From Patescibacteria group bacterium (lineage in GTDB: Bacteria; Patescibacteriota; Patescibacteriia; UM-FILTER-42-10), in contig JBAYGW010000003.1 in the NCBI GenBank assembly GCA_041666485.1, positions 16,415-80,414 of the forward strand: a DNA stretch of 64,000 nt, given 5' to 3'. The notes beneath the pieces were generated by a model. That model was not told the DNA's origin. It ran no database searches and saw nothing but the letters and a program-made list of their open reading frames with translations. Shown here in pieces: positions 8,322 through 11,959 of the stretch; the first letter of the stretch is position 1, and the number at the start of each line of letters is the position of its first letter. Position numbers and translations under genes: made by a program.

Positions 8322-8516
8322 TTAGCCGACCTTTTCCCATGTGGCATCATCGGCAACTTCATCAATGTCTACTTTTTTCTGGGGAATCAGGCACGAAACA
8401 CATTCGGGAAATTTTTCGCCTTTTTCCAATTTTGACTTATAGCCGCACGGCATACATAAATATTCTCCCGTCTCCGGAGCTTTATCACCGGCGTAATAGT
8501 ACTTTTTAATAGGCAT
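8322..8516 (-). CDS. small zinc-ribbon / rubredoxin-like protein
   Basis: 64-aa ORF with CMPC...CVSC cysteine pairs. A strong AGGAGGAGG SD precedes the ATG. Confidence 0.5.
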   Translation of the reverse strand: MPIKKYYYAGDKAPETGEYLCMPCGYKSKLEKGEKFPECVSCLIPQKKVDIDEVADDATWEKVG

Positions 8517-8531
8517 ACCTCCTCCTAATTG

Positions 8532-9098
8532 TTAAGAAGTAATATTTTCTCTGCCCCATTTAAGGGTTTTTGTCATCCAGATTAATTCTGTTAAAAAAGT
8601 ATCAATTCTTACATCGTATGATTCATCTAAAACGTTACCATCATCGTCAAAAAGTGTATCAACCTTTGAGAAGTTCAAGTCAGTCTTAATCATTGATAAT
8701 TGCAGGGCCTTCATAACAGATGCCAAACTTTCAACTGCCCTTGCCCCGCCAAAACCACCGTCTGAAACACTGCATAAGCCCACCGATTTATGCCGGTATT
8801 CCGGTAACAGCATATCCAGGGCCATTTTTAAACTACCCGGGAAACTGTGATTATACTCGGGTGATACAATAATCAAACCGTCCGCTTTTTCTACTAATTC
8901 TTTAAAATCAGAATTTTTTTTACCCAGACCGCGCCCTTCATTACCCGCAAAATTTAATTTTTTTACATCAATGATTTGCGTTACAATCCCCGGTTTCTCC
9001 CTGACTCTTTTTTCCAAATATTTCGCGACTTTTTCACTTTCGCGTCCTTCTCTGGTTGTACCAAGAATAATCGGCAAATATAGAGCATCTTCTGACAT
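8532..9098 (-). CDS. NAD(P)H-dependent FMN reductase family oxidoreductase
   Basis: 188-aa flavodoxin-like ORF; LGTTREGR and SPEYNHSFPG motifs. Confidence 0.8.
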   Translation of the reverse strand: MSEDALYLPIILGTTREGRESEKVAKYLEKRVREKPGIVTQIIDVKKLNFAGNEGRGLGKKNSDFKELVEKADGLIIVSPEYNHSFPGSLKMALDMLLPEYRHKSVGLCSVSDGGFGGARAVESLASVMKALQLSMIKTDLNFSKVDTLFDDDGNVLDESYDVRIDTFLTELIWMTKTLKWGRENITS

Positions 9099-9956: not shown

Positions 9957-10307
9957 TTAATGAATATGTTGATCTAAATGATTATCCAGCATTTCAACCT
10001 GTTCTTTGTCACTGATCTCAAGCATATAGCAAACGCACTTGCCCATTTTATACTTAGTTACAATCCGGGAGCGCTCTAGCATACTTAGCTGGTGCGACAC
10101 TGCGCTGATACTGATACCGAGCACAGCAGCGATATCTGAAACACAGATCTCTTCATAATGTTTTAATAACAGCAATATTTTTATCCTGGTCGGATCAGAC
10201 AAAACATTGCATAGATCACTTTGGATTTTTATGTGTTTACCGTTTCTTTTCAGCCAATTCTGATTTTTTAATATTTGCTTTTGCGTTAACATACTACGTT
10301 TTATCAT
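9957..10307 (-). CDS. ArsR/SmtB family transcriptional regulator
   Basis: LSDPTRIKILLLL and CVSDIAAVLGISISAVSHQL wHTH motifs. Confidence 0.9.
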   Translation of the reverse strand: MIKRSMLTQKQILKNQNWLKRNGKHIKIQSDLCNVLSDPTRIKILLLLKHYEEICVSDIAAVLGISISAVSHQLSMLERSRIVTKYKMGKCVCYMLEISDKEQVEMLDNHLDQHIH

Positions 10308-10440
10308 TTGCTCAAGTGTCTTAATGATATAGCAATTTGTTACCGCCTGTCAAGTCGGGTCACAACTCCTCATAAAGCCAATCTTGACAATAACGTACTT
10401 TTGTATTACTTTCTTTGTATGTTGATCTTTGAAACAACGA

Positions 10441-10575
10441 TGTAGGTGGGAGGACCGCCGTACCAAAAAGCAAGCAGTAATGCTACCCGCTGGGTGACAT
10501 TGACTGACGGGATTCGTCTCGTCCGTGGGCAGATGTTGCCCTCTGGGATGCTAAAGTGCGCGTCCTCCCACCCCA
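10441..10575 (+). promoter_or_regulatory. structured G+C-rich leader RNA domain, class unknown
   Basis: An 11-bp perfect long-range helix (GGTGGGAGGAC 10445-10455 with GTCCTCCCACC 10562-10572) extends by 3 bp. It encloses an AGCA-GTAA-TGCT GNRA hairpin, a GACG-GATT-CGTC hairpin and a GGGCA-n5-TGCCC hairpin. Confidence 0.4.
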
Positions 10576-10760
10576 CTTTCTTCTACAAATTGCTTTGTGC
10601 GGACGCTTAAGTCCGTTTGTGATAGTCACCCCACAACCCGATCCTACAGGGAGGTACGCCAAATGTACTCGTGGAGTTACGCACGCCACGGGTTCGGTTG
10701 ACCTGCGATCTTCTCCGTCTGAGTAGTCAATGCCCACGACTCAAAATGAGGAGATCTCGC

Positions 10761-11126
10761 ATGTGCGACAAGACCCAATGGAACGCGGGGCACGTCCTCG
10801 TCGTCCAGACCGTGTTCCCGACCGACAGCGAATCCCCCGGCGGTTTCTCGCGCAGCGTCATGTTGTGCACCTGTGGGAGCTGCCTGAGCTCCAACAACCC
10901 GATGACGCCCGCAGGGCCCCTGCACAGCTACCTGAAACGGTGCTTTGAGCAGGACGCTGCTGATGCGGTGGCGGGGGGCCTTGAGCCGCCCGTCAACCTC
11001 CTGAGCATGCCGAAGCTTGACCCGCGCACCGGCGCCGAGAAGCCGACCAAGAAGCAGGCAGCCATGCTGATCAAGCAGATCGGTCCGGACGCCTTCGCTT
11101 CCGACATCGTCGCGGCCTACGCCTAG
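10761..11126 (+). CDS. hypothetical protein (121 aa) in a G+C-rich cassette
   Basis: ATG is preceded by GAGGAG at 7-nt spacing, codons are GC3-rich, and a strong terminator follows. No family recognised. Confidence 0.5.
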   Translation: MCDKTQWNAGHVLVVQTVFPTDSESPGGFSRSVMLCTCGSCLSSNNPMTPAGPLHSYLKRCFEQDAADAVAGGLEPPVNLLSMPKLDPRTGAEKPTKKQAAMLIKQIGPDAFASDIVAAYA

Positions 11127-11159
11127 CGTAGGAGAAGAAGTACATCGTTGAAGGACATC

Positions 11160-11190
11160 GGGCGAATCCACTGGATTCGCCCATTTTTTT
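11160..11190 (+). terminator. intrinsic terminator
   Basis: GGGCGAATCCA-C-TGGATTCGCCC perfect hairpin followed by ATTTTTTT. Confidence 0.85.
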
Positions 11191-11276
11191 ATTATGAATA
11201 TTGACAGAAGAAGTGGAATACAATACCATTGTTAACGCCCGCTGATTGTAAGACATCCTTCATGGAGGAGGTGGAC

Positions 11277-11573
11277 ATGTCCCAAAGTCGGCTGGTGATG
11301 TTCTTAATGCTCTTTCTCGGACTGACTCTCTCTCCCCTGTTTCTTGTCGTTGCGGCGGTTATGTTCCTTGCTCCCTCGGAGCCGAAGCTCATCCCCCGGG
11401 ATGATGAAGGGAGACGTTGCTGTCCCGTCTGCCACTCCAGACACTATCTCATCTTCCCGACTCGGCAGAAGAGCTACTTCGGCCATTCCTGGATTTCAGC
11501 ATTTTGCAGAAACCAAATGGAATACCGCTACCAGGACTGCACAATGAGCTGGAAAGAATCCGGGGACGGCTAA
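11277..11573 (+). CDS. hypothetical small Cys-rich membrane-anchored protein (98 aa) in a G+C-rich cassette
   Basis: GGAGGAGG SD 5 nt before the ATG, an N-terminal TM helix (LVMFLMLFLGLTLSPLFLVVAAVMFL), and a CCPVC plus further Cys residues. Confidence 0.5.
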   Translation: MSQSRLVMFLMLFLGLTLSPLFLVVAAVMFLAPSEPKLIPRDDEGRRCCPVCHSRHYLIFPTRQKSYFGHSWISAFCRNQMEYRYQDCTMSWKESGDG

Positions 11574-11576
11574 ACC

Positions 11577-11604
11577 GCGTTGATGTTCTATCAGCGCTTT
11601 TTTT
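11577..11604 (+). terminator. intrinsic terminator
   Basis: GCGTTGAT...ATCAGCGC hairpin (one G-T pair) followed by TTTTTTT. Confidence 0.6.
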
Positions 11605-11623: not shown

Positions 11624-11959
11624 CTATCTGAAGATTTTAGACAGAAACCAGTTTACAATAGCCAGTACAATACCAAACAGCAATGCCCACCAAAAGCTTG
11701 CTATGGAAAATCCCGGAACAATTAACGCCATCAGCATAACCAATAATGCGTTAATCACCAGCGTAAACAAGCCAAGCGTCAGAATATTGATCGGCAGAGT
11801 AAAAATTACTAAAACAGGTTTGATAAATATATTAATCAGACCCAATACCAACGCCCCGACAAAAGCGACAAAAAAACCATCAACCGCTACGCCCGGTAGC
11901 AGATAGGCTGTGATCAGGATTGCGACCGTTGAAATTAGCCATTTAATAAGGATTTTCAT
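11624..11959 (-). CDS. phage holin family 4 / YvlD-like membrane protein
   Basis: 111-aa, 4-TM ORF; ITAYLLPGV and PINILTLGLFTLVINAL resemble the Phage_holin_4_2 family. Confidence 0.75.
   Translation of the reverse strand: MKILIKWLISTVAILITAYLLPGVAVDGFFVAFVGALVLGLINIFIKPVLVIFTLPINILTLGLFTLVINALLVMLMALIVPGFSIASFWWALLFGIVLAIVNWFLSKIFR

Follow-up and report, generated by a model that had tools for sequence, protein, structure and literature searches.

The window examined here is a whole 64,000-nucleotide (nt) stretch of a Patescibacteria group bacterium genome (contig JBAYGW010000003.1), and our subject is a short open reading frame, ORF2, that follows a leader RNA and another small frame, ORF1, on the same strand. 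ORF2 is almost certainly a genuine gene that carries expression signals of its own. Its product very probably joins an N-terminal membrane anchor to a zinc ribbon, with zinc binding itself predicted from the pattern of conserved cysteines. Overall, we favor, tentatively and with somewhat less than even confidence, a cytoplasm-facing, membrane-tethered zinc ribbon that would act as a binding module or tether. Four rival readings are weighed against it, in decreasing order of weight: an extracytoplasmic thiol domain, a rubredoxin-like or other metal-binding protein, a conflict module, and a non-coding stretch. The ORF2 unit comprises the following features.

11160..11192, + strand: upstream intrinsic terminator (10-bp stem, 7 G-C pairs, T7), closing the leader and ORF1 cassette
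11201..11229, + strand: sigma-70-type promoter-like site (TTGACA at 11201-11206, 17-nt spacer, TACCAT at 11224-11229), putative in function
11264-11271, + strand: Shine-Dalgarno sequence GGAGGAGG, followed by TGGAC (5 nt) and ATG 11277
11277..11573, + strand: ORF2 coding sequence, 98 amino acids plus stop
11292..11378, + strand: hydrophobic membrane segment, residues 6-34 (29 amino acids), with a G15-x4-P20 center
11418..11552, + strand: zinc-ribbon-type motif, residues 48-92, C48-C49-P-V-C52 ... (Y85)-Q-D-C88-x3-W92
11577..11604, + strand: ORF2 intrinsic terminator (9-bp stem at 11577-11597, then T7)

Coding potential and expression signals of ORF2

Fetched contigs, combined with scans of GTDB and of metagenomes, gave eight distinct versions of the locus that share synteny: the window (= L010); L001 (= L002, L003, L006, L011, L025); L004/L005; L007 (= L008, L024); L009; L012 (similar to L026); L013 (similar to L027); and L014 (= L015, L016, L028). 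Six distant relatives, at about 26-33% identity, complete a family alignment of 14 members. Across the eight syntenic lineages, the ORF2 frame, start, and stop are kept, and insertions or deletions involve whole codons only. Differences at third codon positions are roughly twice as frequent as those at first or second positions, and the ratio of nonsynonymous to synonymous divergence (dN/dS) falls between 0.16 and 0.30 in 10/10 pairwise comparisons, which indicates purifying selection. The original prediction, an earlier reading of this DNA, had stated beforehand that a lack of protein-level conservation would refute it; purifying selection was found instead.

The stretch has a guanine plus cytosine (GC) content of ~40%, climbing to 0.49-0.66 between 10440 and 11600. 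This GC-rich island in a 40% GC genome holds spurious long ORFs in alternative frames and on the opposite strand, and the leader adjacent to ORF2 is a genuine structured RNA. On these grounds, ORF2 could be untranslated, its open frame being a by-product of GC enrichment within a large structured non-coding RNA. The third-position bias, the dN/dS values, and the conserved frame effectively refute such a reading, as does a protein architecture that is still recognizable at 27-33% identity in AT-rich genomes, such as L017 (33% GC); we give it next to no credence.

Two other start codons were considered and rejected. TTG 11229 is not conserved across lineages. ATG 11262, chosen by one gene caller (103 amino acids, P0001), sits in the Shine-Dalgarno sequence of the ribosome-binding site and is absent in L001, L005, and L012-L014. 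Since ATG 11277 is universal, we assign the start there. A GGAGG(TG) core precedes this ATG by 5-8 nt in 8/8 lineages.

The 5' boundary of the unit is the terminator at 11160..11192, whose stem (11160-11182) and T7 fold at -18.6 kcal/mol (z = -6.2). The corresponding hairpin immediately downstream of ORF1, GGGCGA...TCGCCC plus a T-run, is kept in 8/8 lineages with variable inner stem positions. At the other end, the ORF2 terminator folds at -11.0 kcal/mol (z = -4.3), a value reached by 0/200 shuffles, and a hairpin plus T-run follows the ORF2 stop in 8/8 lineages with stem sequences that vary by lineage. The promoter-like site matches the consensus at 10/12 positions; taken alone, this does not exceed chance (5 promoter-like sites versus 5.1 expected in shuffles). 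Its -35 hexamer, TTGACA, is nonetheless identical in six lineages, with TTGACA-17-TA[CG]CAT in the five close ones and TTGACA with TATGAT in L014; L012 and L013 carry TTGAAA-17-TAAAAT at the equivalent place. The promoter is credible because the -35 element, a TAnnAT -10 element, GGAGG, ATG, and both terminators recur in homologous loci. The predicted cassette (promoter, GGAGGAGG-N5-ATG 11277, and terminator at 11577-11604) was verified at every coordinate, and the proposal of a separate same-strand unit after the first terminator gains from the presence of these signals in 8/8 lineages. The case for a stand-alone transcription unit is thus as strong as sequence alone allows.

Domain architecture and topology of the ORF2 product

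The hydrophobic segment of ORF2 reaches a maximum 19-residue Kyte-Doolittle mean of 2.52, and AlphaFold2 (AF2) places a helix at residues 3-31 with predicted local distance difference test (pLDDT) scores of 70-78. An N-terminal hydrophobic segment of 24-35 amino acids is found in 14/14 family members, and its central proline (P20 in the window) is invariant. The C-terminal part of ORF2 comprises 66 amino acids, 9 of which are Phe, Trp, or Tyr. A hydrophobic segment at residues 6-34 together with a cysteine motif agrees with the small, membrane-anchored, Cys-rich product that had been predicted for this gene.

The family motif reads [C]-C49-P50-x-C52-x2-R55-x-Y57-(L-x-F)-P61, then ~20 variable residues, then (E-Y)-x-C85-x-x-C88-x3-W92. 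Five of these residues (C49, P50, C52, R55, and Y57) are invariant in 14/14 members, while C85, C88, and W92 are conserved in at least 90%; C85 and C88 are each present in 13/14, and the vicinal pair C48-C49 in 10/14. The family consensus has the two knuckles of a C4 zinc ribbon (CxxC ... CxxC, 20-35 residues apart). Below threshold, PF01096 (Zn_ribbon_TFIIS) matches 8/14 members (best E 0.023), PF09723 matches 7/14 (best E 6.6e-4), and PF08271 matches 4/14 (best E 1.8e-4), with further weak zinc-ribbon matches to TIGR02098 (E 0.094) and TIGR02605. Against the PDB, ORF2 gave weak matches to the C-terminal ribbon of Rpb9 (E 0.25), the zinc domain of HypA (E 0.05), the zinc ribbon of a helicase, and an L33 structure. 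Weak as they are, the profile and PDB matches of the family point to zinc-ribbon models only.

The window copy departs from this consensus. It has five cysteines (48, 49, 52, 77, and 88), not six; the CCPVC of the original prediction is present, but only two further cysteines accompany it, not three. Tyr85 occupies the position of the third ligand (C85Y, codon 11529-11531), the sole such case among the 14 members, and the window copy alone has C77 (codon 11505-11507), where close relatives have Gly. The C85Y plus C77 sequence is also found in a second record, L010. Given C85Y, metal binding by the window copy may be altered or lost altogether. The ligand may also have been relocated, with C48, C77, and H53/H56 as possible substitutes.

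Lys and Arg residues are more numerous on the C-terminal than on the N-terminal flank of the membrane segment in 12/14 members and equally numerous in 2. Under the positive-inside rule, the ribbon would lie on the cytoplasmic side, whether the segment is a single pass (N-out) or a Pro-kinked hairpin. A cytoplasmic orientation is therefore probable, and the domain that had been described as exposed more likely faces the cytoplasm. The opposite arrangement, a signal anchor (N-in, C-out), would make the Cys-rich domain extracytoplasmic, disulfide-stabilized or thiol/metal-binding, and tied to thiol-redox genes and an ArsR-family regulator. Five cysteines in the domain, the vicinal CC pair of 10 members, and a post-membrane flank without net charge would suit such a protein. 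The charge distribution in 12/14 members, however, favors a C-in topology, and CPxC...CxxC-x3-W is typical of cytoplasmic zinc ribbons.

Several results weigh against the membrane-tethered cytoplasmic ribbon. With C85Y, the window copy lacks the full set of four ligands. No zinc-ribbon model was matched at its curated threshold, and the window protein has no Pfam match at all and, even below threshold, no zinc-ribbon profile match; ORF2 has no family in Pfam, NCBIfam, PHROGs, or PADLOC and no solved relative in the PDB. The AF2 model is poor (pLDDT 59, predicted template modeling score 0.27, shallow alignment), with low-confidence strands at residues 54-59 and 82-87, and a Foldseek search against the PDB returned nothing with E below 1; from such a model and such noise, we draw no conclusion about the fold. 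Acidic residues in the post-membrane flank equal the basic ones (net charge ~0), which makes the topology call a soft one.

Neighboring genes

ORF2 is embedded among the following genes.

9957..10307, - strand: ArsR-family helix-turn-helix regulator (PF01022, E = 3e-14), divergent from the ORF1 cassette
11624..11959, - strand: PF04020 four-transmembrane "holin superfamily IV" membrane protein (E = 1e-33), convergent with ORF2
8322-8516 and 8532-9098, - strand: adjacent pair encoding a 64-amino-acid CxxC...CxxC rubredoxin-like protein and an FMN_red flavoprotein

The ArsR gene is present in 5/6 lineages whose contig covers the position and is absent in L014. The regulator has conserved Cys33, Cys55, and Cys92, which may indicate a thiol- or metal-sensing type. 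A PF04020 gene lies downstream in every syntenic lineage whose contig reaches that far (69-85% amino acid identity), with one extra gene between in L007. The rubredoxin-like/FMN_red pair is kept in L001 and L007, and L014 retains only a 36-amino-acid remnant of the small protein. Genes on the left-hand side vary: the window and L001 have M23, FMN_red, and rubredoxin-like genes; L007 has thioredoxin, cupredoxin, and a DsbD-thioredoxin fusion; and L012 and L013 have a glutaredoxin-like protein together with a secreted thioredoxin-like protein that carries WCPTC. Housekeeping genes (GH77, FMN_red, CNNM, Maf, and FtsX) neighbor the locus, and the context is not that of a mobile or defense island.

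The thiol-redox genes beside arsR in L007, L012, and L013 would fit an extracytoplasmic thiol domain. They are not conserved, however: the window and L001 differ, and L014 has none and no ArsR. ORF2 also has its own promoter, and a shared ArsR operator was rejected, since neither the ORF1 nor the ORF2 promoter contains an inverted repeat of at least 8 nt. With the topology evidence, this leaves an extracytoplasmic domain unlikely, if the weightiest of the rivals.

The same neighbors bear on another alternative, a membrane-anchored protein in the manner of a rubredoxin or metallochaperone. Its Cys cluster would hold iron or a thiophilic metal (Cu, Cd, Hg, As), either as cargo or as a redox center, within an ArsR-governed metal/redox stress response. 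An ArsR-family gene 1 kb upstream in 5/6 covered lineages and the FMN_red and 64-amino-acid rubredoxin-like genes at the locus are consistent with this. Rubredoxins share the two-knuckle Cys4 geometry, and ORF2 has an extra conserved Cys (CCPxC) and His53/His56 beside its first knuckle. Yet the divergent partner of the ArsR gene is the ORF1 cassette rather than ORF2, and L014 keeps ORF2 although it has no ArsR gene; operator-like inverted repeats occur in neither promoter; and the family has zero rubredoxin, HMA, or Mer matches, even below threshold. The three distant ORF2 relatives with readable context adjoin other kinds of genes, not metal genes: L017 lies between RNase J and NrdA, L020-L022 lie after an AddA-like helicase-nuclease and before PheS/PheT, and L023 lies between an aminoacyl-tRNA synthetase and a PhoU-like gene. 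Neither ORF1 nor PF04020 is near any of them. We regard a metal-cargo or redox role as slightly less likely than an extracytoplasmic domain.

A phage holin or lysis cassette was also considered and rejected: there was no meaningful match to PHROGs or phage records, and the PF04020 neighbor has a chromosomal, non-phage context. One ORF2-family member matches phrog_31976 (of unknown function; E 8e-4) over its hydrophobic segment alone.

Distribution and inheritance

The ORF2 family is restricted to a few related Patescibacteria lineages. Among 5.8 billion protein clusters, a single-sequence search retrieved 4 relatives and a profile search 5 in all; HMMER, run exhaustively with a profile over 1.84 billion representatives, retrieved 9 matches. 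Apart from one spurious locus (L029), the GTDB and metagenome scans yielded nothing outside these few lineages, and the 64-kb window holds no second family member.

Nucleotide identity across the island is ~77% among the five closest versions, and the flanking proteins (ArsR, PF04020, FMN_red, and the 64-amino-acid rubredoxin-like protein) share 75-86% identity among the window, L001, and L007. In the same genome pairs, synonymous divergence (pS) is 0.44-0.61 for ORF2 versus 0.58-0.74, essentially saturated, for the flanking genes; the nonsynonymous divergence (dN) of ORF2 is about twice theirs. Because ORF2 occupies the same locus everywhere and its pS is close to that of its flanks, we conclude that it was vertically inherited, with no recent import. 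In the more distant syntenic lineages, ORF2 has a GC content of only 45-47%. The locus is single-copy and remains at one chromosomal site across saturated synonymous divergence.

ORF2 has no copy in viral contigs, phage genomes, or plasmid collections, and a DNA pattern search of viral contigs with the leader RNA gave zero matches. The lack of a viral, phage, or plasmid copy and the fixed chromosomal site led us to reject a mobile element or recent transfer. The "foreign-looking" character earlier ascribed to ORF1 and ORF2 does not survive as recent acquisition, given the shared locus in all lineages, flank-like pS, and no mobile copy.

One syntenic contig, that of L013 (JAHJBM010000022.1), is assigned to a bin labeled "Candidatus Micrarchaeota archaeon", although it is syntenic with the Patescibacteria loci. 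Its ORF1 and ArsR proteins closely match those of L012, and the contig is probably mis-binned.

The upstream cassette and its relation to ORF2

The cassette that ends at the first terminator contains three further features.

10384..10760, + strand: ORF1 promoter and conserved structured leader, with TTGACA at 10384
10663-10701, + strand: upstream ORF (uORF) of 12 codons, MYSWSYARHGFG then stop, with GGAGG 8 nt upstream
10761..11126, + strand: ORF1, a 121-amino-acid orphan with invariant C2, C36-x-C38-x2-C41, and H55

The leader RNA and ORF1 are odder than ORF2 itself. Within the leader, a structured domain (10442-10575) is predicted to have a long closing helix, GGTGGGAGGAC paired with GTCCTCCCACC, and several inner hairpins. 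Compensatory changes affect 13/82 predicted leader pairs across six lineages (window, L001, L007, L012, L013, and L014); the L001 leader carries a lineage-specific variable hairpin insertion. An Rfam search found no family for the leader at gathering or E-value thresholds. The uORF is conserved in length, frame, and stop in seven loci, with variants that include MYSWCHAHRGFG and MCSWSHTHHGFS; a conserved helix predicted in the leader overlaps the uORF, and selection could act on the peptide or on the RNA. Perfect complementarity of 9-10 nt between the 5' end of the leader (CAACGATGT, 10434-10442) and a site after the ORF1 stop (ACATCGTTG, 11141-11149) is kept in most lineages. As a long-range pairing it was rejected, having no covariation and a duplex energy not better than that of shuffles.

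ORF1 has no match in Pfam, NCBIfam, PHROGs, PADLOC, or the PDB; its AF2 model is poor (pLDDT 55, shallow alignment), and Foldseek against the PDB gave only noise. GC content at its third codon positions (GC3) is 0.76-0.88 across the five close lineages, compared with 0.30-0.58 in flanking genes. Among the window, L001, L005, and L007, pS is 0.30-0.42 for ORF1 versus 0.58-0.79 for flanking genes in the same genome pairs. Low pS where the neighbors are saturated argues that synonymous sites in ORF1 are constrained and that its GC richness is actively maintained. An antisense ORF of 164 amino acids over ORF1 (10677-11171, - strand) is similar in L012 and split into 70 and 114 amino acids in L013, so we dismissed it as a by-product of high GC. 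In L009 (1-335), the most divergent of the close lineages, a frameshift and a stop break the ORF1 homolog beside an intact ORF2, which points to either a pseudogene or a misassembly of the short contig.

ORF1 stands immediately upstream of ORF2 in 8/8 syntenic lineages, despite the turnover of left-hand genes. The original prediction had suggested that the two could belong together in a two-component module, for example toxin/immunity or effector/anchor (here termed a conflict module), and proposed co-occurrence elsewhere as a check. The pairing held in all eight syntenic lineages and broke down in the three distant relatives, where ORF2 occurs without ORF1. The adjacency does not amount to independent evidence, since all eight lineages represent one clade and one locus. 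Both proteins are orphans and both evolve quickly: in L014, ORF1 and ORF2 are each at ~35% identity, against 77% for the PF04020 protein, and dN for both is roughly double that of the flanking genes. Shared rate and adjacency are compatible with a functional link between ORF1 and ORF2, and the pairing is unproven.

For a conflict module, the remaining evidence is unfavorable. Co-transcription is not predicted, as the -18.6 kcal/mol terminator, a putative promoter, and a ribosome-binding site separate the genes in all lineages. Neither protein matched a toxin, antitoxin, immunity, or defense model in PADLOC, PHROGs, Pfam, or NCBIfam. The context is neither mobile nor variable, the single-copy locus is stable over saturated synonymous divergence without any phage, plasmid, or viral copy, and selection is purifying, not diversifying. 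Added to distant relatives that lack ORF1, these results make a conflict module very improbable. The toxin/immunity version has no positive support; an anchor plus its partner is possible.

Comparison with known systems

The closest likeness is a matter of local motif. Like the TFIIS/Rpb9-type ribbon (PF01096), ORF2 has CPxC and CxxC knuckles, an aromatic-rich beta-hairpin region after the first knuckle, and a Trp four residues past the last Cys, with local CPVCHSR...F..Q similarity to Rpb9. Unlike that family, it matches far below threshold, has a longer knuckle spacing (32 residues), lacks the acidic catalytic hairpin, and is fused to an N-terminal anchor; it is a bacterial (Patescibacteria) protein and no component of a transcription factor or polymerase subunit. 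The FmdB / CxxC_CxxC_SSSS proteins (PF09723, TIGR02605) and TFIIB-type ribbons (PF08271) are likewise small proteins dominated by one C4 ribbon, but they are soluble, whereas the ORF2 family has a conserved membrane segment. The ZAS anti-sigma factors (zf-HC2) are small regulatory proteins that combine a zinc-binding Cys/His motif with a single membrane segment. In ZAS proteins, HxxxCxxC is N-terminal to the membrane segment, and the gene lies beside that of an extracytoplasmic function (ECF) sigma factor; ORF2 has the opposite order and a CPxC...CxxC motif, and its neighbors include no sigma gene.

Eukaryotic LITAF / SIMPLE-like domains are zinc ribbons with a membrane-embedded hydrophobic hairpin (PMC5142333). 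ORF2 resembles LITAF in pairing a ribbon with a hydrophobic stretch of ~25-30 residues, possibly inserted as a hairpin, with the ribbon on the cytoplasmic face, and the central Pro of its segment is compatible with a hairpin. The hydrophobic stretch of LITAF, however, lies between the knuckles, whereas the ORF2 segment (6-34) precedes both, and the Pfam scan of the ORF2 family gave no match to the LITAF model. Haloarchaeal CdpC is a zinc-ribbon membrane tether for FtsZ1, in which fast-evolving ribbons mediate protein binding and membrane attachment (bioRxiv 10.64898/2026.07.16.738847). CdpC offers a functional analogy only, not homology, being an archaeal protein with two ribbons, a long linker, and an amphipathic helix (bioRxiv 10.64898/2026.07.16.738847). 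A small protein made of an anchor plus a zinc ribbon is therefore of a known kind; the ORF2 family itself is undescribed in Pfam, NCBIfam, PHROGs, and PADLOC.

Discussion

In the mechanism we propose, the ~29-residue N-terminal segment with its invariant central Pro would anchor ORF2 in the cytoplasmic membrane. The C-terminal ~50 residues would form a three-stranded, TFIIS/Rpb9-like C4 zinc ribbon (CPxC...CxxC-x3-W) facing the cytoplasm, and this structural-zinc module would hold a protein or nucleic-acid partner at the membrane. Such a tether or adaptor role, partner included, is a conjecture we consider plausible without leaning on it. The sole partner candidate that the data offer would be the adjacent ORF1 product or the structured ORF1 mRNA. 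The strong terminator and the promoter between the genes, as well as the distant relatives without ORF1, tell against ORF1 in that capacity.

Taken further, the leader RNA, ORF1, and ORF2 might make up an undescribed RNA-protein module of a small Patescibacteria clade, a long shot in our estimation. Such a module would consist of a ~330-nt structured RNA, a 12-codon uORF, a Cys4/His orphan with synonymous sites locked at a GC3 of ~0.8-0.9, and ORF2, which would recruit the ORF1 protein or transcript to the membrane.

Considered alone, ORF2 is one more uncharacterized, narrow-range small membrane protein in the "dark matter" of Patescibacteria. For annotation, the analysis contributes a corrected start codon, a zinc-ribbon call, and a family definition (transmembrane segment, then CPxC-x2-R-x-Y ... 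CxxC-x3-W). The window copy, with C85Y and G77C, is a natural case in which to test how plastic the ligands of a zinc ribbon are. The neighborhood is of greater interest than the protein, as a GC-rich, vertically inherited island that resists AT-biased mutation. If ORF2 does work with the leader/ORF1 unit, the locus would represent a novel RNA-protein module in an episymbiotic lineage whose genomes are minimal.

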